64,000 nucleotides of DNA from Pseudomonadota bacterium (lineage in GTDB: Bacteria > Myxococcota > JACRCW01 > JAFGSX01). Positions 1,297 through 64,000 of the stretch are shown piece after piece. Below the pieces are notes generated by a model. The model had not been told where the DNA came from and did not search any database. It saw only the letters and a list, made by a program, of their open reading frames with translations. A program made the translations under genes and the position numbers. Position 1 is the first letter of the stretch; each line of letters starts with the position of its first letter. The stretch covers positions 32,001 through 96,000 of the forward strand of contig JBDRCO010000068.1 of NCBI GenBank assembly GCA_043821645.1. Reading direction: 5' to 3'.

Positions 1297-1504
1297 ATCG
1301 CTGCTCCCAAGATGTTGCCTCGAGGGTGCAACACCAGCGCTGCCTGCTGTTGTCCACTCTGTCAGCGCCGTCACACTTTCGAAGCTGCGGGATGTGTGAA
1401 AGGTGAAGGTGAAGCCCCGGCGGCTCGCCTGACACCATGTGGCGCGGCCATGCGGAGGCGGACGCCCGGGCTCCATCGCCACCGTGTCGCCACCACGGCG
1501 CTAG

Positions 1505-1565
1505 AAAAAAAACGAAGGGCGTGGAACATCCGGTGGGGGGAGCACCGGGATGAACCACGCCCTTC
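1505..1565 (-). terminator. Rho-independent terminator
   Basis: GAAGGGCGTGG (1514-1524) pairs with CCACGCCCTTC (1555-1565), with an inner stem. A run of 8 U follows on the minus strand (A8 at 1505-1512). Confidence 0.85.
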
Positions 1566-1635
1566 AAAGGGAAGAAAAAGCAGGGCCTGGATCGTCGGAC
1601 CGGGGGGGGAATCCTAGGAACCGTCACCCTGCTGA
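1505..1635 (-). ncRNA. Candidate sigma54-dependent small RNA with two C-rich loops (Pxr-like architecture)
   Basis: Lies between a sigma54 promoter (1647-1662) and a terminator. It has two stem-loops with loops CCCCCCCC and CUCCCCC, and no credible ORF. Confidence 0.65.
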
Positions 1636-1646
1636 GTTCTTGTATT

Positions 1647-1662
1647 AGCGAGTACCGTGCCA
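1647..1662 (-). promoter_or_regulatory. sigma54 (-24/-12) promoter
   Basis: Minus strand TGGCACGGTACTCGCT versus consensus TGGCACG-N4-TTGCW, with exact GG-N10-GC spacing. Confidence 0.75.
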
Positions 1663-1965
1663 GCGTGCGGAGGCCACTCCCTGGTCCGGGTTCATTGGTT
1701 TTTTTTGCTTGGTCCGTGGAGAGCCGAAAGCGGCAAGCGGCAAGCGCTCTACAAGAACCGACGACGCGAAAAATACGTTAATTATAATAATATGTTAGAT
1801 GATGGCGAAAGAACCACATCGAGTACCATCAATAGCCGCACACGGAGGGTGGCTCTATCTATCGCGTCCTGGGCGCTGGGAGTTGGCGTCGGCGGCCTGC
1901 ACTCGCTATGAATGCACCACAGCACGTTGACTGGGCACACATGAACCCGGGGGCGAGCGAGGCCC

Positions 1966-3753: not shown

Positions 3754-3791
3754 AGCCCCCAGGGGACAGAAACCGAACGGAGAAGACGCTC

Positions 3792-4115
3792 GTGACGACG
3801 ACAAAGCCCCCGGAGCCTGCGGAGCGTTCCCGGACCTTGCGTCAGAGCATCCTCGATGAACTGCTCCGCGGACCGGTGACGGCACGGGAGCTGTCCTCGC
3901 TGGTCGGGCTGCGCGAGCGGGACATCATCCCGCACCTCGAGCACCTGGAGCGTTCCCTGCGGCGAGGTCCGCGCCAGCTCGTGATCGAGCCTGCCGAGTG
4001 CAAGGCCTGTGGCTATCTCTTCGAGGACAGGCGGCGCCTGGGCAAGCCCAGTGCCTGCCCACGCTGTCGCGAGCAGCGCATCGATCCCGCCAGCTTTCAC
4101 GTCGTGGGACCGTGA
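3792..4115 (+). CDS. HTH plus Zn-ribbon transcriptional regulator (COG3357-like)
   Basis: HTH (TARELSSLVGLRERDIIPHLEHL) followed by CKACG...PSACPRC. GTG start inferred. Confidence 0.85.
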   Translation: MTTTKPPEPAERSRTLRQSILDELLRGPVTARELSSLVGLRERDIIPHLEHLERSLRRGPRQLVIEPAECKACGYLFEDRRRLGKPSACPRCREQRIDPASFHVVGP

Positions 4116-7100
4116 TCAGGTGCGGCGCGGTCGGCGGCGAAGGGCATACAGCATGCCGAGTGCCAGCAGCAGGGCAGAGCTGGCACGAACACCGGAGGAC
4201 CCACAGGAACACCCTCCACCCGTGATGGTCACGTCCGAGTACGGCTCATCGTCACAGGCATCACCCATACCGTCACCGTCGCTGTCCAGTTGATCCCGGT
4301 TGGCGACCCCCGGGCAGTTGTCGAGGCTGCTGTACACACCGTCTCCATCGGGGTCCACCACGGCTAGCTCGACGCAGTCCGAGGGCTCGTCCGTGCAGAC
4401 GAATCCTGGCTCGATCTGGCAGGTGGCATCGCAGCCGTCGCCGGCCGAACGATCGCCATCGTCGCACTGCTCCCCGGCATCGATGGCCAGGTTGCCGCAC
4501 AGGGGCGTGCAGACCGAAGGCTCGCCCGCACAGGAATAGCTCGTCTCGACCTGGCAGGTGGCATTGCAGCCGTCACCGACGACCAGGTTGCCGTCATCGC
4601 AAGTCTCACCCGCGTCGAGGCTGCCGTCACCGCAGGTGAGAGCACAGACCGAGGGTTCACCCGAACAAGCGTAGCCGCTCTCGACCTGGCAGGTGGCATT
4701 GCAGCCGTCACCGACGACCAGGTTGCCGTCGTCGCAAGTCTCACCCGCGTCGAGGCTGCCGTCGCTGCAGGTCAGGGCGCACACCGAGGGCTCGCCGATG
4801 CAGGCGTAGCCCGGCTCCACCTGGCACAGGTTGTTGCAGCCGTCGCCGACAATGAGGCCGCCATCATCGCAGGCCTCGCCCGCATCGAGCGCTGCATTGC
4901 CACACAGCAGGCTGCAGGTCGAGGGCGTGCCGCTGCACACCCAGCCCGGCTCCACCTCGCAGCGATCGCTGCACCCGTCGCCGTCCCGGGCATTGCCATC
5001 GTCGCAGGCTTCGCCATCCACCACGTCGCTGTCGCCGCACACCGGGGCGCAGGTCGACGGCGTCCCGGCGCAGACGAAGCCGGGCTCGATCTGGCAGATC
5101 ACCGAGCATCCATCGTCGGCGGTCTGGTTTCCGTCGTCGCAGGCCTCACCAGCGTCCAGAGTGCCATCGCCGCAGGTCGTGGCGCAGGTGCTGGGCTGGC
5201 CCGTGCAGACCGAGCCAGGCTCGACCTGGCACAAGTCGCTGCAGCCGTCCCCGGCGACAGTGCCACCGTCGTCACAGCCTTCACTGGCCGTGATCACGCC
5301 ATCGCCACACTGCTGGGTGCAGGCGCTGGGCGAACCGGCGCAGTTCCACCCCGGTTCCACCTGGCAGGTGCTACTGCAGCCGTCTCCGGCCCGGGTGTCC
5401 CCGTCGTCACAGACCTCGCCAGCGTCGATCGCGCCGTTGCCGCAGCTCGGCGCGCAGGCGCTCGGTGAGCCGCTGCAGGCCCAGCCCGGCTCGACCTGAC
5501 AGGTGGCATCACAGCCGTCCCCGGTTGCCAGGCCGGCGTCGTCACAGGCCTCGCCAGCGTCGAGCGCGCCATTGCCGCAGCTGGCCACGCACAGCGAGGG
5601 CTCACCGCTGCACTGGTATCCAGGTTCGACCGCGCAGGCGGCGTTGCAGCCGTCGTTGCCCGCGAGGTTGCCATCGTCGCAGCCCTCGCCAGCCTGCAAC
5701 AGGCCATCCCCGCACGAGCGCAGACAGGTGCTGGGAGTCCCCGAGCAGGTCCAGCCTGGCTCGACCTGGCAGGTCTCCGAGCAGCCGTCTCCCGAGGTGC
5801 TGCCGCCGTCGTCGCAGGCCTCGCCACTGTCCAGGGTGCTGTCGCCGCAGGTCTGGGAGCAGACGCTGGGTGCGCCCAGGCACACATATCCAGGTTCGAC
5901 CTGGCACAGGTCATCGCAGCCGTCGCCCGCATCGAGGTCGCCGTCATCGCAGGCCTCGCCCAGGTTCAGGACACCATTGCCGCAGGCCGGTTCGCACAGG
6001 CTCGGGGAACCGTGGCAGGAGTAGCCGGTCTCGACCTGGCAGGATGCGTCGCAGCCGTCGCCGGTCAGGGTGTTGGCATCGTCACAGGTCTCGGCCCCCG
6101 TCCTCAGGCCATCGCCGCAGCTGGCGGCGGTGCATACGGAGGGCGTACCTGTGCATTGCCATCCTGGGTCCACCTGGCAGGCACTACAGCCATCGTCCGG
6201 CAGTCCGTTGCCATCGTCACAGGCCTCGACACCGGCCACGATGCTGTCGCCGCAGCTGGTGCCACAGCGCGAGGGCTCGGCCGAGCAAACCCAGCCGGAC
6301 TCGACCTGACACAGGGCGGAGCAACCGTCTCCGTCCGCGACTGCGCCGTCGTCGCAGCCCTCGCTGGAGGCCACCAGACCATCACCACAGCTTGAGCTGC
6401 AGGCCGAGGGCGTTCCCGTACAGACGAAGCCGTGCTCCACCAGGCAGGCCGCGTCGCAGCCGTCACCTGCCGCCGAGTTGCCATCGTCACAGGCCTCGCT
6501 CATGGTCAGGATCGCGTCGCCGCAGACCGGGACGCAGGTCGACGGGGCGCCCACGCAGAAATAGCCAGGTTCCCGCTGGCAGACAGCGCTGCAGCCGTCA
6601 CTGCTCGCCGCGTTGCCGTCGTCGCATTGCTCGCCGGCATCGAGAGCCCCGTTGCCGCAGGTGGCCACGCACACGCTGGGCGACACGCTGTTGTCACACA
6701 CGTAGCCCGGCATGACCTGGCACAGGTCGCTGCAGCCGTCGCTGACCCCTGTCACGCCGTCGTCGCAGGCCTCGTCAAAACCGACCACGCCGTCCCCGCA
6801 GGTCGTAACGCAGAAGCTGGGCTCCCCGCTGCACGACGCACCGGTTTCCTCCTGGCAGGTCGGTGAGCAGCCATCGCCGGCCTGCAGGTTCTGATCGTCA
6901 CAAGCCTCACCCGCGTCGAGCTGGCCATTGCCGCAGCTCGCGGTACAGGTACTGGGCAGGGAAGAGCTGTCGCACACGTAGCCAGGCTCGACCTGGCAGC
7001 TCGCATCGCAACCGTCCCCTGGGGCAAAGTTCCCGTCGTCACAGCCTTCTCCCGCATCGAGGCTGCTGTTGCCGCAGGTCTGGGCGCACAGCGAGGGCTG

Positions 7101-51597: not shown

Positions 51598-52539
51598 GTG
51601 GGGCTGTTCTCGCGAGTCCTGGGCATCCTGAGAGGCCGCGACGGTGTGCGGGCGGCCAAGCTCGTCGCCACGGGCGTGAGCAACGCGCGGGAGGGCAGGC
51701 TTGAGGACGCCCTGCGGCTGTATCGCCGTGCCACCCGCGCCGACCACACCTATGCCCTGGCGCACCTCAACGTCGGTCTGGCTCTGCAGGACCTCTACAA
51801 TCGCGTGTGTGCACAGCTCGACGACGAGCAACGCCAACAGCGGCTGGAGGAGATCGCGGTCTCGCTGGACGAGGCCCGGCTGCTCGATGAGAGTCTGGCT
51901 CCAGCCTACAGCGCCCATGGCTACGTGATGCAGGCACTGGGCCGCGATGTCGACACCGTGGCGGATTTCGAGCGTTTTCTCGAGCTGGCGGCCGAGGATG
52001 ACAAGCTGCGCGACGGCGTGCAGCGAGACCTGGCCCAGGCACAGGAACGGGTCGAGCAGCAGCAGCGCCGGGAGCGCGCGGTACGCCTTGTTCGTGACGA
52101 CAGCACCGGCGACGAGGAACTCGCCGAGGCCTGCACAGATCTGGAGCACGCGATCTCCCTGGCGGACCGGGATGCCGAGCTCTGGTGGGCCCTGGGCGTC
52201 GGCTGTCGTCGCACCGGCAACACCGCCCGTGCGGTCGAGGCCTTCGTGTTCGTGACCGAGCTGGATCCCGAGGGCGCCGACGCTCACCGCGAGCTGTCGT
52301 CCATCGCGTTCAAGGCTCGACAGCTGGACCTGGCTCTGCAGCATGCGCGGCGTGCCTACGAGATCGATCCCACCAACGCGGGGGTCGTGTGTAATCTGGG
52401 GGTCTGCCACATGGAACTGGGGGATCTGGAACACGCGAGGGAGTTCATCGAACTCGCGCACGAGCTGGATGCCGAGGACCCCATCATCGAGGACTGCCTG
52501 CGCGAGCTGGAGCGAGCCGTCGCGCGCGTACCGTCGTGA
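51598..52539 (+). CDS. TPR protein
   Basis: Multiple TPR-like repeats (AHLNVGLAL, WWALG, VCNLGVCH). Confidence 0.85.
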   Translation: MGLFSRVLGILRGRDGVRAAKLVATGVSNAREGRLEDALRLYRRATRADHTYALAHLNVGLALQDLYNRVCAQLDDEQRQQRLEEIAVSLDEARLLDESLAPAYSAHGYVMQALGRDVDTVADFERFLELAAEDDKLRDGVQRDLAQAQERVEQQQRRERAVRLVRDDSTGDEELAEACTDLEHAISLADRDAELWWALGVGCRRTGNTARAVEAFVFVTELDPEGADAHRELSSIAFKARQLDLALQHARRAYEIDPTNAGVVCNLGVCHMELGDLEHAREFIELAHELDAEDPIIEDCLRELERAVARVPS

Positions 52540-52609
52540 AAAGGGTGCAACCCGGCCCGCCGGACGCGTGGGGCAGGACCGGAAACGGCGCCCGGGGTCA
52601 GGAGAGAAC

Positions 52610-53056
52610 ATGATCGCACTCGGATCCGACCATGCGGGCTTGCAGCTCAAGCGCTCCGTTGTGCAGCACCTCGAGACTCGCGGCTTCGAAGTCGCGGATC
52701 TGGGCACCCACGATGCGCAGTCCTGCGACTATCCCGACCTGGCGAAGGCGGTTGGCGAGCGTGTCGCGCGAGGCGCGGCCGATCTCGGCGTGCTTGTCTG
52801 TGGCACGGGCACGGGCATGGCCATCGCCGCCAACAAGGTCCCGGGGGTGCGCGCGGCCATGTGCTGCAGCGAACTTCAGGCACGGCTGGCGCGCGGCCAC
52901 AACGACGCCAACGTGCTGTGTCTGGGGCAGCGTCTGCAAGGCGAGGCCCTGGCCCAGGCCATCGTCGATGCCTTCGTCGACACGGCGTTCGAGGGCGAGC
53001 GACATGGACGTCGCGTGCGCCTGATCAGCGACATGGAGCGTGCTGCGCCGCGCTGA
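52610..53056 (+). CDS. rpiB: Ribose-5-phosphate isomerase B
   Basis: [47 protein letters not shown]. Confidence 0.96.
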
Positions 53057-53141
53057 GGGCGGCATGCCATGCCGGGTTGTGCACGCCCGGCCTCGATGGG
53101 GCAGTCCCCGGGACCACCCCGAGCAACATGAGGGAGCAGCA

Positions 53142-54413
53142 ATGACACTCGAGGCGCTCAAGAAGGTGGATCCGCAGGTGTACGGGGCCCTGGTGAAGGA
53201 AATCCGACGCCAAGCCGAGGGGCTGGAACTCATCGCCAGCGAGAACTTCGTCAGCGAAGCCGTGCTGCAGGCCATGGGCTCACCCCTGACCAACAAGTAC
53301 GCCGAGGGCTACCCGGGCAAGCGCTACTACGGCGGCTGCGAGTTCCACGACGTCATTGAGCAACTGGCCATCGATCGCGCCTGCCAGCTCTTTGGCGCCG
53401 AGCACGCCAACGTGCAGCCGCACTCGGGCGCCCAGGCCAACATGGCCGTGTACTTTGCCGTGTGCGAGCCCGGGGACACCGTGCTGGCCATGAACCTGGA
53501 CCACGGCGGTCACCTGACCCACGGCAGTCCGGTCAACTTCTCTGGCCGGCTGTACAAGATCGTGCCCTATGGCGTGCGCCAGGACGACCAGTGCATCGAC
53601 TACGACGAGGTCGAGCGGCTGGCTGATGCGCACCGGCCGAAGATGATCCTGGCCGGGGCCAGCGCCTACTCGCGGACCATCGACTTCGAGCGCTTCGGCG
53701 CCATCGCCAAGAAGGTCGGTGCCGTGTTGCTGGTGGACATGGCCCACATCGCGGGTCTGGTCGCGGCGGGTGTACATCCCTCGCCGGTGCCCCACGCCGA
53801 CTTCGTGACCACCACCACCCACAAGACCCTGCGCGGACCGCGCGGCGGCCTGATCCTGTGTCAGGAGAAGCACAAGAAGGTCATCAACTCTCGGGTGTTC
53901 CCCGGTGTGCAGGGCGGTCCCCTGATGCATGTGATCGCCGCCAAGGCCGTGTGCTTTCAAGAGGCGCTCGGCGACGCGTTCAAGACCTACCAGCAGCGCA
54001 TCGTCGACAACGCCCAGGCCCTGGCCAGCGCCTTGACCGCGGGCGGCTGCCAGCTGGTGTCCGGAGGCACCGACAACCACCTGATGATGATCGACATGCG
54101 CTCGAAGAAGATGACCGGCAAGGCCGGAGAAAAGGCCCTCGGCCTCGCGGATATCACGGTCAACAAGAACATGATCCCCTTCGATCCCGAGAAGCCAACG
54201 GTGGCCAGCGGCGTCAGAGTGGGTACCCCCGCGGTGACCACCCGTGGCATGGGCACCGATGAGATGCGGCAGATCGGCGGTCTGATCAACCGCACCCTCG
54301 ATGCCCCGGACGACGAGGCCGTGCGAGCCCAGGTGCGCGAGGCGGTGCTCGCCCTGACCGCGCGCTTCCCCCTTTATGCCTCGCGCCTTGAGGAGATCGA
54401 ACGCCTTGGTTGA
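53142..54413 (+). CDS. glyA: Serine hydroxymethyltransferase
   Basis: [43 protein letters not shown]. Confidence 0.98.
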
Positions 54414-54906
54414 ACCTGCTGCACACCGTCCCACCGGGCCGCGCCCGAGCTGGGACGAGTACTTCATGGATTTCGCTCGCCTGGCCAGAACCCGCGCGAC
54501 CTGTATCCGTCGCGGGGTCGGGGCGGTGATCGTGCGCGATCGCCAGATCCTGACCACGGGCTACAACGGCGCGCCCAGGGGCATGCCCCACGCCGAGCAG
54601 GTCGGCTGCATCCGCGACAAGCTCGGGGTGCCGTCGGGGCAGCGGCATGAGATCTGCCGTGGCCTGCATGCCGAGCAGAACGCCATCATCCAGGCGGCCT
54701 ACCAGGGCATCTGCATTCGAGACGCGGATCTTTACTGCACCACCGCGCCGTGTTCGATCTGCATCAAGATGATCGTGAACGCTGGTATTCTGCGCGTGTA
54801 TTATCTCGAGGACTATCACGACGAGCTGAGCCGCAGCATCGCCGCCGAGGCCGGAGTGGCCCTGATTCACGTCGGTGGCGTGCGCGACGAGGGTGGCCCG
54901 ACATGA
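54406..54906 (+). CDS. dCMP deaminase family (ComEB-like)
   Basis: [31 protein letters not shown] start after GAGGAG inferred. Confidence 0.93.
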
Positions 54907-55217
54907 ACTGCCCGCACTGCCATCACGCCGACACCAGGGTCGTGGACTCGCGCGAGACCGAGGCGGGCCAGGCCGTGCGCCGGCGTCGCGTGTGCGAGGC
55001 CTGCGAGCAGCGCTTCACCACCTACGAACGCATCGAGGCCCTGGTCCCGGTCACGGTCTCGGCGCGGACGGGTCAGACCTTGCAGCGTGCTGCCGGGCTG
55101 ACCTCGAGGCGAGGCCTGGCGCGGCGGGTGGCCAGCGACGATCCCGGGAATCGGGTCCCCGACTACGGTGAGCTCGACGACACCGTGGGGTCTCCACTGC
55201 CGCCTGGCGAGGCGTGA
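54903..55217 (+). CDS. nrdR: NrdR, truncated (Zn-ribbon only, no ATP-cone); possibly a pseudogene
   Basis: [30 protein letters not shown]; the following ~60 aa are not ATP-cone-like. Confidence 0.85.
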
Positions 55218-55240
55218 GTCGCTGAGGATCGCGCTCGACC

Positions 55241-56368
55241 ATGCCACGCCGTTCCCGAGCCTCGACACCACCCTCCAACGCCCAGGACGAGCGATGGATG
55301 CAGCACGCCATCGCCCAGGCGCGGCGAGGGCTGGGGCGCACGCGGCCAAACCCGGCGGTCGGGGCGGCAGTCGTGCGCGACGGCCGGGTCCTGGGCCTGG
55401 GCTATCACCACGGAGCAGGCTTGCCGCACGCCGAGGTCGAGGCGCTGCGCGTTGCCGTGGGTGACGTCCGGGGTGCCACCATCTACGTCACCCTGGAGCC
55501 CTGCGACCACCACGGGCGCACCGGCCCGTGCACCGAGCGTCTGATCGCGGCCGGCGTCGCGCGGGTGGTCGTTGGCTGCATCGATCCCAATCACCGCGTC
55601 AATCACCGCGGCGTGGCAAAGCTCCGTCGCCACGGCATCCAGGTCGATGTGGGCGTGTGCGAGGACGACTGCCGCGAGCTCATCGCCGGTTACAGCAAGC
55701 ACGTGGTGCAGGGCCTGCCCCTGGTCCTGCTCAAGGCGGCCGTGTCGGTGGATGGGCGCCTGGCCACGCGCACGGGCGATAGCCGCGGCCTGTCCGGGCC
55801 CGAGAGCCAGGCCCACCTGCATCGTCTTCGCGCGCGTTGCGACGCCATCGTCGTGGGCATTGGCACCGTGCTCGCCGACAACCCACGGCTCACACCGCGG
55901 GGCGAGGAGCGCGAGGCCGAGGACGGCAATCCCCTGATCCGGGTCGTGCTCGACACGCAGGCCCGCACCCCCCCGAGCTCGCAGGTGGTGCGCGGGCCGG
56001 GCACCTGCATCGTCGCCGTGGGGAAGGGGGCCGCGGCCTCCAGGCTCCGGCGCCTCGAGCAGGCCGGGGCCGAGATCCTGCGCTGTCCGCTGCGGGGTGG
56101 CCATGTGTCGCTGCGCCACGTGCTGCGCACGCTGGGGCGGCGCGGGCTGATGACCGTGCTGGTCGAGGGTGGCGGCACCGTGCATGGCAGCCTGCTCCGC
56201 CAGGGCCTGGCCGACCGCGTCCTGCTGTACATGACCCCGCGCCTCATCGGTGGCGACGGCGTGCCCGTGCTGGCCGGTCCTGGCCGCCGCCTGATCGCCG
56301 AGACCGGTCTGCAGGAGCCGCGGTGGCAAGCCCTGGGCGAGGACATGCTGCTGACTGCCCGGCTCTAG
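55241..56368 (+). CDS. ribD: Riboflavin biosynthesis deaminase/reductase
   Basis: PNPAVGA, HAE, TLEPCDHHGRTGPC, SVDGR, GIGTVLADNPRLT, LVEGG. Confidence 0.96.
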   Translation: MPRRSRASTPPSNAQDERWMQHAIAQARRGLGRTRPNPAVGAAVVRDGRVLGLGYHHGAGLPHAEVEALRVAVGDVRGATIYVTLEPCDHHGRTGPCTERLIAAGVARVVVGCIDPNHRVNHRGVAKLRRHGIQVDVGVCEDDCRELIAGYSKHVVQGLPLVLLKAAVSVDGRLATRTGDSRGLSGPESQAHLHRLRARCDAIVVGIGTVLADNPRLTPRGEEREAEDGNPLIRVVLDTQARTPPSSQVVRGPGTCIVAVGKGAAASRLRRLEQAGAEILRCPLRGGHVSLRHVLRTLGRRGLMTVLVEGGGTVHGSLLRQGLADRVLLYMTPRLIGGDGVPVLAGPGRRLIAETGLQEPRWQALGEDMLLTARL

Positions 56369-56430
56369 GACCTGCGTGCTGGGATTCGGATTCGCCCCGC
56401 AGGCACTGCCGAGCTTTTCAAATCTCAAGT

Positions 56431-56557
56431 TGTGCAATTTCACGGCAGCGATGGTGAGTATTACGACACTGCGCTTCTCCGATTCAAGCGTTTGATTCTA
56501 CATACATTTGCAGAATGACGCGGTTTTTCCCTGCGGAGACTGTTGAATATCTCGACA
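56431..56557. promoter_or_regulatory. Three 17-bp palindrome-like activator sites (TGTYG..CGACA type)
   Basis: TGTGCAATTTCACGGCA (56431), TGGTGAGTATTACGACA (56452, 21 bp later) and TGTTGAATATCTCGACA (56541). Confidence 0.65.
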
Positions 56558-56653
56558 AGCCAGGCCGGGAACCACTGGGGACCAGCCGCCGCGGGGATTC
56601 AATAAACCAATTTTATCTGAAGCATACCTGGATCTACCAGAATTGATCGGTGT

Positions 56654-56669
56654 TGGCCCACCTGTTGCT
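56654..56669 (+). promoter_or_regulatory. sigma54 promoter
   Basis: TGGCCCACCTGTTGCT with GG-N10-GC spacing. Confidence 0.75.
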
Positions 56670-56708
56670 CAATGAATGGAGCAGAACCGCACGAACAGGG
56701 AGGCCGCC

Positions 56709-56792
56709 ATGGTGCCACTGCTGATGATCTCGACACTCGCAGCCTGCCTCCTCGTCGAACGAATCAGGCGCTCAGCAGACATGTCGACCTAG
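56709..56792 (+). CDS. 27-aa single-TM peptide
   Basis: GGGAGG RBS; MVPLLMISTLAACLLVERIRRSADMST; resembles the N-terminus of the 60655 protein. Confidence 0.55.
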   Translation: MVPLLMISTLAACLLVERIRRSADMST

Positions 56793-56862
56793 CGCACGGA
56801 CGCAGCGCGCGGACGCTGCGAAACGGCGCCAGGGGGGCAGGGTACGAACCCGGAGGTTGCAC

Positions 56863-57411
56863 GTGAAAGCCCCCTTGCTTGCCGTCGTGGACAGGCTCCT
56901 CGTGACCGGCGCCATCGTCATGGCAGCCGTCTTGCCCGCTCTGCTCCTCGCCCAGGTCCCTGCCGATCCGGCCGCAGCAGAGGAGAATGCCCAGGCCGTC
57001 CCCTCGGTCGCGGCTGAACCTACCGCCATCAAGGAGACCATCACCTTCGAGTCGGTGATGGGTCGGGTCGAGTTCGCACACCGCCAGCACGTCGAGGAGT
57101 TCGGCGTCGAGTGCGCGAGCTGCCACCACGAGGTGCGGGCCCGCGAACTCAAGACGCCTCACGATCGCTACCTGCGCAACCTGCCTGTCGACTGTGCGCG
57201 CTGCCACCATGCGGGCGACGCCGCGCACAAGATCCAGGCCTGCAGCAACTGCCACGACGCCGCGGCGAGCATCCCGGGGCCCGACGACCTGCGCATGGGC
57301 GCCCGCGCCGCCGTGCACCTGACCTGCGCGGCCTGCCACGAGTTCGGCCAGGGCTGCGAGGCCAGCCAGAAGTGCATCACCTGTCACGCCGGGCCCAAGA
57401 AGCCCCGCTGA
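56863..57411 (+). CDS. Pentaheme class III (c3-like) cytochrome c
   Basis: VEFAHRQH; CASCH, CARCH, CSNCH, CAACH, CITCH; signal/TM segment; GGAGG before GTG. Confidence 0.9.
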   Translation: MKAPLLAVVDRLLVTGAIVMAAVLPALLLAQVPADPAAAEENAQAVPSVAAEPTAIKETITFESVMGRVEFAHRQHVEEFGVECASCHHEVRARELKTPHDRYLRNLPVDCARCHHAGDAAHKIQACSNCHDAAASIPGPDDLRMGARAAVHLTCAACHEFGQGCEASQKCITCHAGPKKPR

Positions 57412-57446
57412 CGAGGACCGTGGGGGGAGAAGAGGCGGCGACGATC

Positions 57447-58313
57447 ATGCGACGACGCAGTTTTCTGGGAGCCCTGGGCGCCGCGGGCGCGGCACTGGCG
57501 ACGGGAAAGGCGAGGGGCTCCACCGCAGAACCCACTGCCGCGCGCGAGTTCGTGGGCGTGCTGTGCGACACCACCCGCTGCATCGGCTGCCGCGCGTGCG
57601 AGGTGGCCTGCGCCGAGACCCACGGCCTGCCCGTGCCCGACATCAAGGCGGACGGAGCCCTGGAGACGCCGCGCAAGACCAGCTTCACCCAGCGCACCGT
57701 GGTCAACCGCCACCACACCGACAAGGGCGAGGTCTTCGTCAAGCGGCAGTGCATGCACTGCTGGCAGCCGGCCTGCACCGCGGCCTGTCTCACCAACGCC
57801 ATGCTCAAGACCGAGGATGGGCCGGTAGTCTGGCGCGGCGACAAGTGCATGGGCTGTCGCTACTGCATGGTGTCCTGCCCCTTCGAGATGCCCAAGTACG
57901 AGTACGGCAGCAACAACCCGCGCATCAACAAGTGCGACCTCTGCGTGGACAGGGTGGCCCAGGGCAAGCTGCCCGCCTGCGTCGAGGCCTGCCCCAAGAA
58001 CGCCCTGCAGTTCGGTCGCAAGCGCGACCTCATGGAATCGGCGCACAAGCGCATCTACACCCACCCCGGCAGCTACGTGCGCCACGTCTACGGCGAGAAG
58101 GAAGTGGGGGGCACGGGCTGGCTCTACCTGGCCAGCGTGCCCTTCGATCAGCTCGGCTTCCGCACCGACCTCGGCGACACCCCCTATCCCGAGTACACCA
58201 AGCAGTTCCTGTACGGCGTGCCGGTGGTGTTTTTGGTCGGCCCGACGCTGATGCTGGGGCTGCACCAGCTGACCCGGCGCAGCGACGAGGTGAAGAAGAT
58301 GGAGGGCCAGTGA
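57447..58313 (+). CDS. Tat-exported multi-[4Fe-4S] protein (HybA/HmcB/NrfC family)
   Basis: MRRRSFLG Tat motif; CIGCRACEVAC, CMHC..PAC..AC, CMGCRYCMVSCP, KCDLC..PACVEACP; C-terminal TM. Confidence 0.94.
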   Translation: MRRRSFLGALGAAGAALATGKARGSTAEPTAAREFVGVLCDTTRCIGCRACEVACAETHGLPVPDIKADGALETPRKTSFTQRTVVNRHHTDKGEVFVKRQCMHCWQPACTAACLTNAMLKTEDGPVVWRGDKCMGCRYCMVSCPFEMPKYEYGSNNPRINKCDLCVDRVAQGKLPACVEACPKNALQFGRKRDLMESAHKRIYTHPGSYVRHVYGEKEVGGTGWLYLASVPFDQLGFRTDLGDTPYPEYTKQFLYGVPVVFLVGPTLMLGLHQLTRRSDEVKKMEGQ

Positions 58314-58314
58314 C

Positions 58315-59538
58315 ATGAGCACCACCTACCAGGGCCGCCCGAGCGACCTGCCGCTGTTCGACTTCCTGCTCGGCGAGCTGAAGCCAAAGGGCAAACTCCT
58401 GACGCCGTTCAACATCATCTCGGTGCCGGTGATGCTGGTGGGCGCGGTGCTCATCGCCATCCGCTTCATCTACGGGCTGGGCTCGGTGACCAACCTGAAC
58501 CAGGAGTTTCCCTGGGGCTTCTGGGTCAGCTTCGACGTCATCACCGGCGTGGCCTTCGCCGGCGGCGCCTACCTGGTCACCTTCGCTGTCTACGTGATGG
58601 GCAAGGAGAAGTACCACCCCATCGTGCGGGCCACGGTGCTCAACGGGTTTCTCGCCTACCTGTTCTACGCCATCGCCCTGACCCTGGACCTGGGCCGGCC
58701 CTGGAACATCGTCAACCCCATCATCGGCAACAGCTTCGGCTACAACAGCATCCTGTTCCTGGTGGCCTGGCACTTCATGCTCTACATGGCGTCGGAGTTC
58801 ATCGAGTTCTCGCCCGCCATCGCCGAGTGGCTCAACCTGAAGAAGGCACAGCGGGTGCTCACGGGCCTGACCCTGGTCACGGTGATCTTCGGCGTCACCC
58901 TGAGCTGCCTGCACCAGTCCGGCGTGGGCGCGCTGTTTTTGCTGGCCAAGTCCAAGATCCACCCGCTGTGGTACAGCGAGTTCATCCCCGTGCTGTTCCT
59001 GGTCTCCAGCGTGGCCTCGGGCGCCTCGGTGATCATCCTCGAGGGCAGCATCAGCCACCGTGTGTTCCGCGGCCAGCTGGGCAAGGACAAGCACGGCAGC
59101 TTTGACCAGATCGTGCTCGGCCTGGGTCGTGGCGCCGCGGTGGCGCTGTTTTTGTACTTCTTCCTCAAAGTCATGGCCTTTGTCCATGGCCACCACTGGG
59201 ACTACATCTTCACCGGCTGGGGCCAGTGGTACATGGTCGAGATGCTGGGCTTCGTGGTGTTGCCCTGCGCGCTGTTCGCCGCCGCCTACAAGCAGCAGGA
59301 TGTGCGCCTGGCCCAGGTCGCGGCGGTGCTGACCCTGATCGGCATCGTGCTCAATCGCCTCAACATCTCGCTCATCGCCTTCAACTGGAACACCGACGCC
59401 ACGTACTTCCCGTCGGTGTACGAGTTCATCGTCACCTTCAGCATCCTGTTTGCCGAGATCTGGGCTTTTCGCTGGGTGGTCCATCGATTGCCCGTGCTGC
59501 GCGAGGGCCCAGATTGGAGCCACAAGGGTTCGCACTGA
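58315..59538 (+). CDS. NrfD/PsrC-family membrane subunit (HybB/HmcC-like)
   Basis: GLGSVTNL..PWG.W..FDV..GVA..GG, DLGRPW, LHQSGVG, HPLWYS. Confidence 0.94.
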   Translation: MSTTYQGRPSDLPLFDFLLGELKPKGKLLTPFNIISVPVMLVGAVLIAIRFIYGLGSVTNLNQEFPWGFWVSFDVITGVAFAGGAYLVTFAVYVMGKEKYHPIVRATVLNGFLAYLFYAIALTLDLGRPWNIVNPIIGNSFGYNSILFLVAWHFMLYMASEFIEFSPAIAEWLNLKKAQRVLTGLTLVTVIFGVTLSCLHQSGVGALFLLAKSKIHPLWYSEFIPVLFLVSSVASGASVIILEGSISHRVFRGQLGKDKHGSFDQIVLGLGRGAAVALFLYFFLKVMAFVHGHHWDYIFTGWGQWYMVEMLGFVVLPCALFAAAYKQQDVRLAQVAAVLTLIGIVLNRLNISLIAFNWNTDATYFPSVYEFIVTFSILFAEIWAFRWVVHRLPVLREGPDWSHKGSH

Positions 59539-59567
59539 AAGGGCCGCCGGGCCCGCGGGAGAGGACC

Positions 59568-60302
59568 ATGGACACCTTCAGCTACGTCAACATCTTTGCG
59601 ACCAAGGGCATCGAGTACCTGCTCGTCATTGGCTTCCTGCTCGTCCTGTTCGCCTTTGTCCGCTACCTGGCGAAACCGGCGCCCGTACAAGCGGTCCGCG
59701 AGGCCGAGCTGCTCAGGCACAAGGGCCAGCTCGGTGTCTTGCCCGACCTGCTGCCGCTGCGGCCGCGACCCGGCGCCTTCGTGGCCTCGGGGCACACCTG
59801 CAACCGCCTGCGCGAGGACGGCTGCCTGGAGGTGAGCCTGGGTGCCCTGGTGCACCACTTACTTGGGGAGATCGAGCGGGTCGAGGTGGTTGCGCCGCAG
59901 CAGGTGCGCGCGGGCGACGTGCTGGCGGTACTGCACCAGGACGGCCGCCGCCTACACGTGCGCGCTCCCGTGGATGGCATCGTCACCGAGGTGCACACCG
60001 AACTCGTCTCGGGCAGCGAAAAGCTGATCTTCGATCCCGAGCACGCGCAGTGGCTGGTGCGCTTGCGGCCCCTGAAGATCACCGATGCTCTGGCGCGCAT
60101 GCACTATGCCGACGAGGCCAGGCACTGGCTGGATGGCGAGCTGCAGCGTCTGCGCGACCTGCTGGCGAGCAATGCCGCGGCATGGGTGGGGGCGCCACTG
60201 GCCCTCGCCGACGGCGGTACGCCGGTGCGCGGACTGGCCGGGCGCATGCCGGTGGAACACTGGCAACAGCTCGAACGCAGCTTCTTCGGCGGTCAGACCT
60301 GA
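59568..60302 (+). CDS. Membrane-anchored GcvH-like protein 1 (no lipoyl Lys)
   Basis: N-terminal IFATKGIEYLLVIGFL TM; GHT..; V.AGD.L..L.QDGR.L.VRAPVDG.V; WLVRL; ALADGG. Confidence 0.85.
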   Translation: MDTFSYVNIFATKGIEYLLVIGFLLVLFAFVRYLAKPAPVQAVREAELLRHKGQLGVLPDLLPLRPRPGAFVASGHTCNRLREDGCLEVSLGALVHHLLGEIERVEVVAPQQVRAGDVLAVLHQDGRRLHVRAPVDGIVTEVHTELVSGSEKLIFDPEHAQWLVRLRPLKITDALARMHYADEARHWLDGELQRLRDLLASNAAAWVGAPLALADGGTPVRGLAGRMPVEHWQQLERSFFGGQT

Positions 60303-60377
60303 GCTGGTGCGCACCCTGTGACCAGGTTGTGGGCGTCGGCCCAGGCGGGGTTTGCCGCGCAGAAGCCAGAATTGTAC

Positions 60378-60503
60378 TGCCGTGAAATTCAACAATCCGA
60401 CCCAGAAGACGGCAGTGGGTGGCTTTTGAAATTACAGAATAATTACGAAGGACTGAACGCATCGTGCCAATTCAAGGCCAATGGACTGTTGGATTATCCG
60501 ACA
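60378..60503. promoter_or_regulatory. Two further copies of the 17-bp palindrome-like site
   Basis: TGCCGTGAAATTCAACA (60378; its reverse complement matches the 56431 site at 15/17) and TGTTGGATTATCCGACA (60487). Confidence 0.7.
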
Positions 60504-60598
60504 AAAGCGAGAGCAAGTCCCCTGAGAGCGAATCCAGGAAATATATAAATTACCTTTAATAACAATACGATGGAATCGGATCCGCAATTCGTGATGGT

Positions 60599-60614
60599 TG
60601 GTGTGATTCTTGAA
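60599..60614 (+). promoter_or_regulatory. sigma54-like promoter (variant -12 GA)
   Basis: TGGTGTGATTCTTGAA with GG-N10-GA spacing, ~40 bp before the start codon, the same geometry as at 56654. Confidence 0.5.
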
Positions 60615-60654
60615 CATACTACTGATTGCGGGACCCTGTCCCAGGAGGTCTGTC

Positions 60655-61371
60655 ATGGTTGCGATCCTGGTCCTGACAACGGTGGTTTTCTTCGTGGCCG
60701 TCGATCTCATCCTGCAGCACCGCAAGCAGGCCCTTGGGCTGGCCTCGGCGGGAGGTGGTCAGGTCGGCGTGGTGGCGGCCCCCACCGGCCTGGCTGAGGA
60801 ACCCCGGCTGATCGTGGCCGAGGGCCATTTCCTGGCCCCCGGGCACACCGCGGTCCGCCTGCTGCCTGACGGCGCCCTGGCCCTGAGCAGCGGCCCGCTG
60901 CCCGCGCACCTGCTGGGCGCGGTCGATCGCATCGAGCTGCCGCTGCCGGGCCGAGTGCAGCGCGGCGATACCCTGGCGGTGCTGCACGGGGCTGGCCGCA
61001 GCCTTCACCTGAGCGCTCCCGTCGACGGCGTGATCGAGGCGGTGAACCGGGAGCTCGCCGCCTACCCGGGCCAGCAGGCGGTGGCGCGAGCGGCCAACAA
61101 CTGGCTGGTGCGGCTGCGCCCCCACGACCTGCAGCAGGCCCTGGCCGGATTGCACTTTGCAGCCGACGCCCAGCGCTGGTTGCAGGGCGAGGTGCAGCGG
61201 CTGCGCGACCTTCTGGCGTCGGTGCAGGGAGGCGTGGGCGAAGCCACGGCCCTGGCGGATGGCGGGCTACCGCGGCGCGGTCTGGCGCGGGAACTCGAAC
61301 CTGAGCGCTGGGCAAAGCTCGAGCAGAGCTTCTTCGCCATCCAGGATGACAGCGCAGATCGTGCGCATTGA
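60655..61371 (+). CDS. Membrane-anchored GcvH-like protein 2 (no lipoyl Lys)
   Basis: AGGAGG RBS; MVAILVLTTVVFFVAVD TM; PGHTAV; VQRGDTL..L.GAGRSL.L.APVDG.I..VN; NWLVRL; ALADGG. Confidence 0.85.
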   Translation: MVAILVLTTVVFFVAVDLILQHRKQALGLASAGGGQVGVVAAPTGLAEEPRLIVAEGHFLAPGHTAVRLLPDGALALSSGPLPAHLLGAVDRIELPLPGRVQRGDTLAVLHGAGRSLHLSAPVDGVIEAVNRELAAYPGQQAVARAANNWLVRLRPHDLQQALAGLHFAADAQRWLQGEVQRLRDLLASVQGGVGEATALADGGLPRRGLARELEPERWAKLEQSFFAIQDDSADRAH

Positions 61372-61402
61372 GCAGCGAGATCCGAGCAGGGGAGGCGCGC
61401 GC

Positions 61403-62149
61403 ATGACCGTCCAGGAGAGACCTCCGGCGGGAGGCTGGCTTCGACCAGGGGACAGGCCCTGCGAGTGGATGCGCGCGGGTCTGATGGTCTACAGGTTGTG
61501 CGACCGCGACGGCGACTGCGAATCCTGCCCGCTGGATGCGGCGCTGCGCGGTGGCCGTCTGCCCCGGGACCAGCAAGCCCGGGCAGAGGGCCCGGCTGCA
61601 AGTCCGTGGAGCTTTCCCGACGACAGGCTGTACCATCCGGGCCACCTGTGGGTGTGCGAGCAGCAGCCAGGCGTGCTGCGCTGCGGGGTCGATGCCTTCG
61701 TGGTGATGCTCTGTGCCAGCCCGTCGAGGCTGGTGCTGCCAGCCGCACAGTGTGCCCTGGACGAGGGCAAGGCTGCGGTCTGGATAGGTATGGACAGTGG
61801 ACTGATGGTGCGCCTGCGGGCACCGGTCTCGGGCACGGTGCTGCGCCGCAACCCGTCCCTGCAGCAGCAGCCAACCCTGGTCAGCCAGATGCCTTACGAC
61901 GCGGGCTGGCTGTTCGAGCTCCAGGGGGAACTCGCCGGCCAGGTGCCTGGCCTCCTCGACGCCGTGGCCATGCGCCGCCGTGCCGAGCAGCAGCGCGCTC
62001 AGTTGCTGGAACACCTGCACGAGGAGCTGGCCAGGCAGCACCCCGAACTCAAGCAGATCGCTGCCGACGGAGGAGAGCTGTCGACGGAGATCCTGCACAC
62101 CCTGGACGCCCACGTCCTGACCCGGCTGCTCGACGCGGCGCTGGGCTGA
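61403..62149 (+). CDS. GcvH-like protein 3 with N-terminal Cys cluster (no lipoyl Lys)
   Basis: CEWMRAG..YRLCDRDGDCESCPLD; YHPGHLWV; RCGVDAF; APVSGTV..NP.L..P.LV..PY..GWLF; AADGG. Confidence 0.85.
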   Translation: MTVQERPPAGGWLRPGDRPCEWMRAGLMVYRLCDRDGDCESCPLDAALRGGRLPRDQQARAEGPAASPWSFPDDRLYHPGHLWVCEQQPGVLRCGVDAFVVMLCASPSRLVLPAAQCALDEGKAAVWIGMDSGLMVRLRAPVSGTVLRRNPSLQQQPTLVSQMPYDAGWLFELQGELAGQVPGLLDAVAMRRRAEQQRAQLLEHLHEELARQHPELKQIAADGGELSTEILHTLDAHVLTRLLDAALG

Positions 62150-62230
62150 GCACAGCCACCCTCGCACCTCTCGCCAGGTCACATCGCGAAGGCTAGAGTA
62201 CCGCGGTCACAGACGGACCACGGAGCAGCG

Positions 62231-63922
62231 ATGACCTCGGCGGAGCACGCGCGAAGCAGGACAAGGTCCCCTCGACGGGTGCTGGACTCCATCGGCTTCC
62301 GCCTGGGGCTGTTCATCGTCGGCACCATCGTGCTGGGCTTCGGGGTCTTTGCCTACGTCTACCTGACCACCACCGCGGACTACGGCCGCAGCTCGGTCAC
62401 CGACGACGCGCGCAAGATCCTCGAGATCATCGAGCGCTCGACCCACTGGGCCATGTTGCACAACCAGAAGGAAGACGTTTCCGAGATCGTCCGCAACGTC
62501 GGCGAGCAGCCCGACGTGGTGGGGGTCCGTATCTTCGACAAGAACGGCCGCATCGTGTTCTCGGATCGGGAGTCCGAGATCGGCCACAAGGTCGAGTTGC
62601 ACGGCGAGGCCTGCGTCAGCTGCCACATCTCCACCACCGAGGTCATCACCCCGGACACCGACAAGCGCGTGCGCATCTTCACCGCCCGCAACGGGCAGCG
62701 TGTGCTGGGCATGACCAATGCCATCGACAACAAACCCGAGTGCTCCAACGCAGACTGCCACGCACATCCACCGGACAAGACCACCCTGGGCGTGCTGGAC
62801 GTGCGGGTGTCCCTGGCCCGGGCCGACGCCCGCAGGCACGAGGTCGAGCGCCAGGTCGTGGTGGCGGCGGTATCCCTGGCATTGCTGGCGGCGCTGGTGG
62901 TGGGCAGCTTCGTGCAGGTCATGGTGCGCCGGCCGGTGCGGCGGCTGATCGAGGGAACCGAGCTGGTGGCCAGGGGCGACCTCGACGTGCAACTGCACGA
63001 CGCCAACCGCAACGAGCTGGGTCAGCTGTCGCGAGCCTTCGACAGCATGACCCGGGACCTGCGCGAGGCGCGTGACCAGCTGGCCGAGGCGCGCGAGGCG
63101 ATCGAGAGCCGCCTCGACGAGAAGACCGACGAGCTGAGTCGAACCCAGCGCCAGGTCGTGCACATGGAAAAGATGGCCTCGCTGGGCAAGCTGTCGGCCA
63201 CGGTGGCTCACGAGCTGAACAACCCCCTGGCCGGCATCCTCAATTACGCCAAGCTGGTGAATCGCTACCTGGCCGAGCTGGATAGCTGGGCCGATCGGGA
63301 CGAGGTCGCGCGCTGCGTCAAGATGATTGGCGAGGAGGCCTCGCGCTGCGGCGACATCGTGCGCAACCTGCTGGTGTTCGCGCGGCGCACCGGATCCAGC
63401 ATGACCGAGGCCCATCTGCACGAGGTGTCGGAGCGCGCGCTGATGCTGGTCCGGCACCAGATGCAGATCGCCAGCGTGGCCCTGGAGGAGAAGCTCGGAG
63501 CCAGCGACGACGCCCTGGTGTGCGACGTGGGCCAGCTGCAGCAGGCGCTGGTGGCCTTGCTGATCAATGCCATCCAGGCCATGGCCCAGGGCGGATCCCT
63601 GAAGCTCGCCACCCGCGACGCCGGGGATAGCATCTGTATCGAGATTTGCGACAGTGGTCCCGGCATTCCCGACGACGTGTTGCCGCACATCTTCGAGCCC
63701 TTTTATTCGACCAAGCTGGACGGCCAGGGTGTGGGCCTGGGGCTGGCCGTGGTCTATGGCATCGTGCAGCGCCACGGCGGTGAGATTCGCGTCGACACCA
63801 CGCTGGGCACGGGCACCTGCTTCGAGATCACCTTGCCGCGACATCCCACCCGGGCCCAGATGGAAAGCTCCGCGCCCCCCGTGGTCGGCGCGCTGGAGCG
63901 AGAGACCGAGGTCAAGCCATGA
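62231..63922 (+). CDS. HAMP sensor histidine kinase with putative heme c periplasmic domain
   Basis: Two TMs flank a domain with CVSCH and CSNADCH; HAMP; EKMASLG..VAHELNNPL; N, G1, F and G2 boxes. Confidence 0.93.
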   Translation: MTSAEHARSRTRSPRRVLDSIGFRLGLFIVGTIVLGFGVFAYVYLTTTADYGRSSVTDDARKILEIIERSTHWAMLHNQKEDVSEIVRNVGEQPDVVGVRIFDKNGRIVFSDRESEIGHKVELHGEACVSCHISTTEVITPDTDKRVRIFTARNGQRVLGMTNAIDNKPECSNADCHAHPPDKTTLGVLDVRVSLARADARRHEVERQVVVAAVSLALLAALVVGSFVQVMVRRPVRRLIEGTELVARGDLDVQLHDANRNELGQLSRAFDSMTRDLREARDQLAEAREAIESRLDEKTDELSRTQRQVVHMEKMASLGKLSATVAHELNNPLAGILNYAKLVNRYLAELDSWADRDEVARCVKMIGEEASRCGDIVRNLLVFARRTGSSMTEAHLHEVSERALMLVRHQMQIASVALEEKLGASDDALVCDVGQLQQALVALLINAIQAMAQGGSLKLATRDAGDSICIEICDSGPGIPDDVLPHIFEPFYSTKLDGQGVGLGLAVVYGIVQRHGGEIRVDTTLGTGTCFEITLPRHPTRAQMESSAPPVVGALERETEVKP

Positions 63923-64000
63923 AACCCGAAGATCTGGGCCTGCTGATCGTCGACGACGAGTTCTCGGTGCGGGACTCGTTGCAGGCATGGTTCCGCAAGG
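63919..64000 (+). CDS. Response regulator receiver domain (partial; probably NtrC-type)
   Basis: ATGA overlap with the kinase; MKPEDLGLLIVDDEFSVRDSLQAWFRK runs off the right edge. Confidence 0.8.
   Translation, partial: MKPEDLGLLIVDDEFSVRDSLQAWFRK

Follow-up and report, generated by a model that had tools for sequence, protein, structure and literature searches.

We describe here a gene cassette at the end of the 64,000-nucleotide stretch of contig JBDRCO010000068.1 that was analysed (assembly GCA_043821645.1; the whole stretch is called the window below), in which three proteins related to the glycine cleavage H protein (GcvH), named H1, H2 and H3, are encoded between a putative membrane redox module and a two-component system. 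NrfD-type modules of many anaerobes couple redox reactions in the periplasm to the quinone pool, and to our knowledge their control is largely unknown. We propose, with a probability of roughly 55%, that the locus belongs to a widespread and undescribed cassette, in which a quinone module of the Nhc/Hmc type is combined with cytoplasmic, lipoate-free H-fold signalling subunits that are wired to a haem c sensor kinase and a sigma-54 activator. The features of the locus are as follows.

56654..56669, + strand: sigma-54-type -24/-12 element TGGCCCACCTGTTGCT, with one mismatch to TGGCAC-N5-TTGCW
56863..57411, + strand: five-haem cytochrome c (c3/c7-like), matching Cytochrom_CIII and Cytochrome_C7, with five CxxCH motifs
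57447..58313, + strand: HmcB/HybA-like 4x[4Fe-4S] protein, matching HmcB, HybA and Fer4_11, with a twin-arginine translocation (Tat) signal
58315..59538, + strand: HmcC/HybB-like membrane subunit of the NrfD family, matching NrfD and HmcC, with nine hydrophobic segments
59568..60302, + strand: H1, an HmcD-like helix, GcvH fold and 'DGG' domain (GCV_H, 23.3 bits)
60303..60654, no strand: H1-H2 spacer of 352 bases, partly A+T-rich as read from the sequence
60655..61371, + strand: H2, a membrane helix, GcvH fold and 'DGG' domain (GCV_H, 25.6 bits)
61403..62149, + strand: H3, a soluble protein with a four-Cys motif, GcvH fold and 'DGG' domain (GCV_H, 38.0 bits)
62231..63922, + strand: sensor histidine kinase with periplasmic CxxCH and Cx4CH motifs (HAMP, HisKA, HATPase_c)
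63919..64000, + strand, continuing to window-equivalent 65262: NtrC-type response regulator (REC, sigma-54 AAA+ and HTH_8), the first 27 codons of which lie in the window
window-equivalent 65266-65796, directly after the activator and beyond the window: M54 metallopeptidase (Pfam; HEIGHTFGLRH)

The eight genes from 56863 to the end of the window are all co-oriented on the + strand, in the order five-haem cytochrome c, HmcB-like protein, HmcC/NrfD-like subunit, H1, H2, H3, HAMP sensor kinase and NtrC-type activator; both the order and the co-orientation that the earlier note had claimed hold. The cytochrome, whose start is uncertain (TTG at 56857 or GTG at 56863, giving 182-184 amino acids), matches Cytochrom_CIII (E 7.2e-10) and Cytochrome_C7 (E 5.4e-07) of Pfam and has a hydrophobic segment at residues 12-30 that would serve as an N-terminal signal or anchor. 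It scores 31.6 bits with the HmcA model, whose cut-off is 400, and contains five CxxCH motifs rather than 16 haems. The Fe-S protein has a Tat signal (RRRSFLGALG) and four Cys clusters, and a membrane helix (residues 254-272) anchors it at its C-terminus; its best family in NCBIfam is HmcB (334.2 bits, under the cut-off of 420), and it reaches 224.2 bits with HybA (cut-off 263). The third protein matches NrfD of Pfam (E 1.4e-16); its best family is HmcC (402.3 bits, under the cut-off of 550), followed by HybB (271.2 bits, under 450). Its relatives in other phyla are 57-67% identical, the mean column identity of the alignment is 73%, and the subunit is presumed to form the quinone site.

The earlier note had also claimed that this module has no catalytic partner, and the contig was read about 10 kb beyond 64000. 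That stretch contains the M54 peptidase and thiC and, from 56431 to about 10 kb past the window end, no gene for a catalytic subunit, for HmcE (haem b) or for HmcF (HdrD-like) was found. One of the conditions under which the earlier note would have been refuted, a catalytic subunit just downstream, does not hold. Likewise, hydrogenase genes were absent from the operon and from the 10 kb read downstream, ligase, lipoate-synthesis and Hdr-like genes were absent from the 10 kb downstream and from the conserved neighbours, and neither haem b nor any other transmembrane electron route was detected among the encoded families (Pfam, NCBIfam).

Several features of H1, H2 and H3 support the conclusion that they are not lipoyl carriers in this window. 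In the column that holds the lipoyl lysine of the genome's canonical GcvH (VESVKAV), all three have glycine, followed by arginine in H1 and H2 and by leucine in H3; no lysine lies at or beside the hairpin tip in any of them. The lack of the lipoyl lysine had been noticed before. All three exceed the GCV_H cut-off of Pfam (22.2 bits), with the scores listed above, and fall far below that of the GcvH equivalog TIGR00527 (19.7, 26.5 and 35.8 bits for H1, H2 and H3, cut-off 115.85). The canonical gcvH of the genome (147.8 bits) adjoins gcvP on contig C52, away from the window. Among 213 H-like domains from related loci, 11 have lysine in the lipoyl column, and the column after it holds lysine in 81 and arginine in 55. 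Because lysine and arginine interchange there, this next column is a poor fit to a conserved attachment site.

As judged from structural models, the GcvH fold is genuine in H1 and H3. The H1 model (predicted local distance difference test, pLDDT, 78.5) matched the Thermus H protein 1onl_A in Foldseek (E 1.9e-07, target-normalised template modelling score 0.87, root-mean-square deviation (rmsd) 2.1), and the H3 model (pLDDT 82.7) aligned with the pea H protein 1dxm_A in VIA-align (Z 22.0, rmsd 1.5, 131 residues). The fold of H2 is taken from its likeness to H1, with which it is 47% identical. The additions to this fold differ among the three proteins. H1 begins with a membrane helix containing the motif FATKGIEYLLVIGF, and its residues 10-30 show a weak match to HmcD (NF045712; 13.5 bits, cut-off 34, E 0.054). 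Residues 2-20 of H2 form a membrane helix. H3 has four N-terminal cysteines (C20, C33, C39 and C42; C-x12-C-x5-C-x2-C) that do not vary in any of the 21 aligned sequences and lie in a part modelled as a beta-hairpin and a helix. At the C-terminus, all three add a helical extension, referred to as the 'DGG' domain, in which DGG and a Trp are conserved.

The H-fold domains are predicted to be cytoplasmic. Across 29 H1-family sequences, the N-terminal flank of the membrane helix has 0.9 K+R and 2.1 D+E, against 3.2 K+R and 0.7 D+E in the C-terminal flank, a distribution that places the H domain in the cytoplasm by the positive-inside rule. The same location follows from the fusions of receiver and H domains described below, because these must be cytoplasmic. 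A periplasmic position of the H proteins was also considered and was rejected, as the flank charges and the domain fusions speak against it.

In the H-domain tree, H1 and H2 of the window pair with each other as nearest neighbours; both belong to the H2-type clade, which has 67 leaves (support 0.988), and lie outside the main H1 clade. H3 groups with the four-Cys clade of 37 leaves (support 0.987). The pairing of H1 and H2 points to a lineage-specific duplication, with an H2-type domain joined to the HmcD-like helix in this lineage. Relatives of H1 are numerous (161 at E <=0.001 among 7,450 candidates) and mostly about 230 amino acids long, and most of them are annotated as 'glycine cleavage system protein H'. 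PF28260 is precomputed on many of these relatives and may already cover part of the H1 family.

The neighbourhood of these genes is conserved far beyond this genome. A search for H1 loci with the single sequence found no relative; an alignment-based search with the conserved H1 helix motif then gave 46 loci in species-representative genomes. HmcC adjoins the H genes in 41 of them; of the remaining five, four are cut off by the contig end at the match. A second set was chosen by HmcC alone, and the best 80 of its 192 relatives (58-73% identity) comprised 78 new loci and two seen before. These loci span Acidobacteriota/Thermoanaerobaculales, Myxococcota, Gemmatimonadota, Bacteroidota, Ignavibacteriaceae, Calditrichota, Krumholzibacteriota, Marinimicrobia, Eisenbacteria, Fibrobacteraceae, Spirochaetota and others. 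Genes were counted by tblastn with the window proteins within 6 kb of HmcC, both in the 78 loci and in the 35 well-flanked ones, whose flanks reach at least 4 kb upstream and at least 5 kb downstream, with the following result.

GcvH-like domain gene: 62 of 78 loci, 32 of 35 well-flanked loci
Kinase: 50 of 78, 31 of 35
Full sigma-54 activator: 40 of 78, 27 of 35
M54 peptidase: 35 of 78, 25 of 35
HmcD-like open reading frame (ORF) directly after HmcC: 55 of 78, 31 of 35
Recognisable cytochrome: 19 of 78, 10 of 35

The M54 peptidase is co-conserved with the activator. The association is also visible on the tree: in a FastTree phylogeny of NrfD-like sequences, the clade that includes the HmcC of the window has 113 members; 93 of them have H neighbours, 8 have none and 11 have too short a flank. 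The genome's other five NrfD genes lie outside this clade, and only the window's NrfD gene, among the six, has GcvH-like neighbours. The neighbourhood survey that the earlier note had set as a refutation test thus found GcvH-like genes co-conserved with the NrfD-type subunit and the kinase in many phyla.

Two layouts recur among these loci. One is [H2-type]-HmcB-HmcC-H1-[H3]-kinase-sigma-54 activator-M54; the other consists of the kinase, one or two receiver-GcvH fusions, a cytochrome, HmcB and HmcC, followed only by an HmcD-like ORF of 35-45 residues. Such short ORFs replace H1 in 17 of the 78 loci. The HmcC of the window is closest to that of L061-L064, in which cytochrome, HmcB, HmcC and a short HmcD are accompanied by a divergent unit of H2, kinase, activator and M54 peptidase.

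Further variants were observed. Five loci (L030, L032, L037, L041 and L045) have a Thermodesulfobacteriota-type order of M54 peptidase, Cys-rich H-like protein, H1, HmcB, HmcC, four-haem cytochrome, kinase and activator; their Cys-rich H-like protein has a different Cys pattern, and a divergent 13-haem cytochrome (about 670-710 amino acids) lies upstream in four of the five (L030, L032, L037 and L045). In several Bacteroidota and Ignavibacteria-type loci (L025, at 1-6773, L040, L088, L092, L114 and L122), a second, distant HmcB/HmcC pair lies directly upstream of the main cassette. Its HmcC is about 31-32% identical, and the pair comes with a 13-haem cytochrome, its own kinase with haem motifs and two receiver-GcvH proteins.

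A connection of the H module with signal transduction is supported by domain fusions. Response_reg and GCV_H of Pfam were found in single ORFs, namely two proteins of L025 and P0150, and 16 such REC-GcvH fusions occur in 14 of the 78 loci chosen by HmcC, always beside HmcB-HmcC. An Atlas cluster of 101 members has REC and GCV_H in every member. The profile of the C-terminal 'DGG' domain matched 1,290 cluster representatives at E <=0.001 (174 at E <=1e-10), and in 150 of the 150 matches listed it forms the C-terminal end of the protein. In P0174, a single chain contains a signal peptide, four CxxCH motifs, a helix with FATKGVEYLLV and the H module; P0245, which stands in the place of H2 within a complete cassette, has a periplasmic domain (about 330 residues) followed by a helix and the H module. 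From these architectures, the H module is predicted to form the cytoplasmic C-terminus in every case, preceded by a receiver, a periplasmic domain, a cytochrome or an HmcD-like helix. In loci with a REC-H fusion and a short HmcD, such as L069, L075 and L094, no DNA-binding regulator lies near the kinase, which leaves the H module as the sole visible output. The earlier note had proposed that the H proteins are adaptors from the complex to the kinase. The link with the phosphorelay stands through the receiver-GcvH fusions; the position assigned to the H proteins is less well backed, as the fused relatives put the H module at the output end, from where it may work below the kinase or on the membrane complex instead of feeding the kinase.

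P0245 belongs to a group of proteins of 531-571 amino acids (with P0246, P0253 and P0266) that consist of a signal peptide, the periplasmic domain, one membrane helix and the H module, a receptor-like architecture found, for example, at L139:9001-10644. The periplasmic domain has no Pfam match; PBP_like_2 is assigned to 11% of one such Atlas cluster. P0146 (599 amino acids) matched the C-terminal profile eight times and had odd Pfam hits without a passing stretch; it was dropped because it had the appearance of low-complexity noise.

The two-component system of the window has the features of the NtrC class: a regulator with REC, an AAA+ domain with GAFTGA and a helix-turn-helix domain, a HisKA/HATPase kinase and one predicted -24/-12 element. 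The kinase has two transmembrane segments (residues 25-43 and 209-227), and the periplasmic stretch between them holds C128xxCH and C171x4CH; HAMP, HisKA (H-box H327) and HATPase_c were found with Pfam, and AtoS and ZraS are its best curated matches. Of 29 kinase rows from related loci, 27 have both haem motifs, corresponding to 25 of 27 distinct ORFs since two ORFs were listed twice, and the two ORFs without them are unrelated kinases elsewhere in their own loci. In a PDB sequence search with the kinase, all the matches listed start at residue 211 or later, and the periplasmic domain with the haem motifs was unmatched. The response regulator, of 447 amino acids, contains REC, Sigma54_activat and HTH_8, with GAFTGA at residue 221. 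The 176-residue M54 peptidase is archaemetzincin-like, with an intact HEIGHTFGLRH.

Two sigma-54 promoters had been claimed for the locus. One of them is retained: the element at 56654-56669, about 195 bases 5' of the cytochrome start, is the only site with one mismatch in 56369-56870, and six such sites were observed in the window against 2.58 expected. The second was not recovered: even when up to three mismatches were allowed, neither the H1-H2 spacer (60300-60660) nor the stretch before the kinase (62140-62240) gave a sigma-54-type element. A search of 56000-64000, which includes the spacer, against Rfam gave no match at E up to 0.1. In 124 related loci, 15 stringent elements lie in 84.6 kb before module genes and 21 in 2,985 kb elsewhere, a density about 25 times higher before the module genes, and a looser count found 12 of 69 upstream regions to have an element, compared with 1 of 69 when the reverse strand was scored. 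The idea that the system activates its own locus keeps some ground from this one promoter-like site and from the upstream enrichment in relatives; it loses some because only 15 of the 124 loci carry such sites.

On these grounds, we can propose how the cassette may work. In the periplasm, electrons would be exchanged between the five-haem cytochrome c and the HmcB-like protein with its four [4Fe-4S] clusters and would reach menaquinone/menaquinol at the cofactor-less HmcC/NrfD subunit; we infer this path from cytochrome through HmcB to quinone by analogy with Hmc, Nhc and Hyb. The kinase would read the periplasmic redox state through two c-type haem sites, with its CxxCH and Cx4CH motifs as the presumed attachment points, and would act through the NtrC-type activator on the sigma-54 promoter at 56654, so that the operon is turned on. 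The activator is the presumed driver of that promoter. The HmcD-like helix would tether H1 beside HmcC, H2 would be held by its own membrane helix, and H3 would be soluble, with its four-Cys knuckle. The three proteins would be cytoplasmic protein-protein modules that carry no cofactor and that, by binding the complex, couple it to the phosphorelay; both these contacts and the direction of signalling are inferred. We prefer the direction in which the H module is an output element or regulatory cap, acting on the complex or on H partners, because some loci with receiver-H proteins show no DNA-binding regulator near the kinase. The direction favoured by the earlier note, a relay from the complex through the H proteins to the kinase, is possible and ranks somewhat lower.

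A bolder version of this proposal may well prove wrong and is offered tentatively: the GcvH fold and the 'DGG' domain together could be an unrecognised cytoplasmic signal-output module that targets the NrfD-type quinone module. The two-component system would then exert direct post-translational control of a respiratory complex alongside sigma-54 control, with the M54 peptidase possibly resetting it.

Several observations weigh against the cassette as we propose it. Its parts can exist apart, because three well-flanked HmcC loci (L070, L091 and L100) have neither H genes nor the kinase and one locus with H1-H3 and full flanks (L033) lacks HmcBC. The periplasmic cytochrome partner is not fixed, because the multihaem cytochrome is often missing: 26 of the 46 loci found through H1 have no ORF with at least three CxxCH motifs, and a cytochrome is detectable in only 10 of the 35 well-flanked HmcC loci. 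The counts of neighbours themselves come from tblastn with the window's proteins on contigs of metagenome-assembled genomes, and the first set of loci was picked through H1 itself. The likeness to HmcD is weak and was seen in three of the four sequences tried, namely in H1 and in two of three short ORFs of related loci. The stringent sigma-54 elements are confined to 15 of the 124 loci, and the nearest relatives have none before the cytochrome gene. Finally, lysine lies within one column of the lipoyl position in 90 of the 213 relatives, and some members of the family may be lipoylated.

The alternative that survives best is an ordinary respiratory operon, in which the H proteins would be structural or assembly subunits, an elaborated HmcD, of an Nhc-like quinol:cytochrome c oxidoreductase, and the two-component system would only induce the operon, as TorSR and TtrSR do. 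A kinase and an activator beside a respiratory operon are a common arrangement. The most conserved part of H1 is its membrane helix (the majority residue has a mean share of 0.69 there and of 0.55 in the H domain), the short HmcD-like ORFs stand in for H1 in those 17 loci, and HmcC is highly conserved, as expected of a working enzyme subunit. However, the receiver-GcvH fusions and the proteins with a periplasmic domain, helix and H module put the H module inside signalling architectures, no other output is visible in loci such as L069, L075 and L094, and three H types are retained side by side. We consider this explanation unlikely, while taking it more seriously than the other alternatives.

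It is less probable still that the whole locus is a dedicated redox-sensing device, in which HmcB-HmcC, with or without the cytochrome, does not serve bulk respiration but is a wire bringing the periplasmic haems of the kinase into equilibrium with the menaquinone pool. In this reading, the sensor would be scaffolded or tuned by the H proteins and the real regulon would lie elsewhere. The absence of an encoded catalytic partner, the conserved haem motifs of the kinase and the fact that the cytochrome is dispensable in many loci where kinase, HmcB and HmcC stay together would all suit a sensor. In contrast, the sigma-54 element here precedes the module's own genes, as for a regulated enzyme, and the 13-haem cytochromes coupled to the module in some loci fit bulk electron flow.

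That the H proteins are cofactor or substrate carriers after all, holding some other covalent group or a small molecule in their cleft and ferrying it along the cytoplasmic side of the complex in the manner of LbpA/sHdr, is very improbable: the fold is that of swinging-arm carriers, the invariant four-Cys motif of H3 could bind a metal or cluster and many relatives have Lys or Arg beside the hairpin tip, but the hairpins of the window read Gly-Arg, Gly-Arg and Gly-Leu without Lys, Lys and Arg interchange among relatives, no ligase, lipoate-synthesis or Hdr-like gene is found in the 10 kb downstream or among conserved neighbours, and, since no transmembrane wire (haem b or other cross-membrane route) is encoded, the H domains would be out of reach of the module's electrons.

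The source assembly comprises 7.07 Mb in 140 contigs, with about 67% G+C. Upstream, at 52300-56400, are translations resembling serine hydroxymethyltransferase, a deaminase, NrdR and RibD, recognised by eye, which we take to be housekeeping genes. Past the window end, the M54 peptidase is followed by thiC on the - strand and then by RCC1-repeat, Crp, Ser/Thr kinase, FecR and MMPL genes, which are unrelated to the cassette. The public DNA run that best matches 56600-64000 is a groundwater metagenome (0.93 of sampled words), which may be the source sample of the assembly.

The cassette, found in many phyla, pairs an NrfD-type module with an H-fold family that gave up lipoate and appears in signalling architectures. 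Should the H module be a signalling output or regulatory cap, it would represent a new domain class in bacterial signal transduction and place a respiratory complex under direct phosphorelay control, and the blanket annotation 'glycine cleavage system protein H' would be corrected. Even if the H proteins are only structural, this would still be a new and widespread Nhc-like complex with an unusual subunit.

The system had been put forward as a candidate uncharacterised one, and we came to the same view from the full-text literature, where no description of the H-fold partners, the receiver-GcvH proteins or the cassette was found, subscription journals and preprint supplements being outside the scope of this search. 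In a review of NrfD proteins (PMC8076601), 'glycine' and 'GcvH' have no occurrences. A three-part counterpart in that literature is Cbc4 of Geobacter sulfurreducens (CbcS, CbcT and CbcU), where an anchored multihaem cytochrome c, a protein with four [4Fe-4S] clusters and an integral membrane subunit are proposed to form a quinone:cytochrome c oxidoreductase whose role is unknown (10.1101/2025.04.14.648717). Compared by this published description only, Cbc4 has the same composition as the membrane module of the window; the available part of its text mentions no GcvH-like genes, and 'glycine' does not occur there.

GcvH, LbpA and GcvH-L share the fold and the Pfam domain with H1-H3. H1-H3 differ from GcvH in the absence of the lipoyl lysine, in scores far under the GcvH cut-off and in not lying beside gcvP, and they add a membrane helix or four-Cys motif and the C-terminal 'DGG' domain. 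The two-component system agrees with the NtrB/NtrC class, as represented by AtoS/AtoC and ZraS/ZraR, in its kinase matches, regulator domains and upstream -24/-12 element; in contrast to that class, the periplasmic sensor of the window's kinase has two c-type haem motifs, and kinases of sister loci are paired with receiver-GcvH proteins and not with a DNA-binding regulator.

HybA and HybB of Escherichia coli hydrogenase-2 are the second-best curated families for the membrane module, with which they share a Tat-dependent Fe-S protein with a C-terminal anchor and an NrfD-type topology, although the scores are under the cut-offs of 263 and 450 and hydrogenase genes are absent from the operon and the 10 kb read downstream. 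The closest likeness is to Hmc and Nhc of Desulfovibrio, which have the same multihaem cytochrome c, Tat 4x[4Fe-4S] protein and NrfD-like subunit in the same order, followed by a small hydrophobic ORF or helix with, here, a weak HmcD match. According to the available part of Price et al. 2014 (PMC4215793), HmcC is NrfD-like, and the Nhc operon lacks hmcE and hmcF and has a shortened cytochrome. As far as that description goes, the gene content of Nhc (cytochrome, FeS protein, NrfD-like protein and small transmembrane protein, without E or F) is matched by the window, apart from the number of haems and the fusion of the transmembrane helix to an H domain. The cytochromes of Hmc and Nhc have 16 or 9 haems, whereas that of the window has five; the HmcB and HmcC scores (334.2 against 420 and 402.3 against 550) lie under the equivalog cut-offs, and the HmcE and HmcF genes of Hmc are missing. 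In addition, the HmcD-like helix is fused to a GcvH fold, two more GcvH-fold proteins are present in the cassette, and a haem sensor kinase, a sigma-54 activator and an M54 peptidase are added. Judged by these family scores and its gene content, the membrane module belongs with Hmc, Nhc and HybAB, among which it represents a new variant, below every equivalog cut-off.

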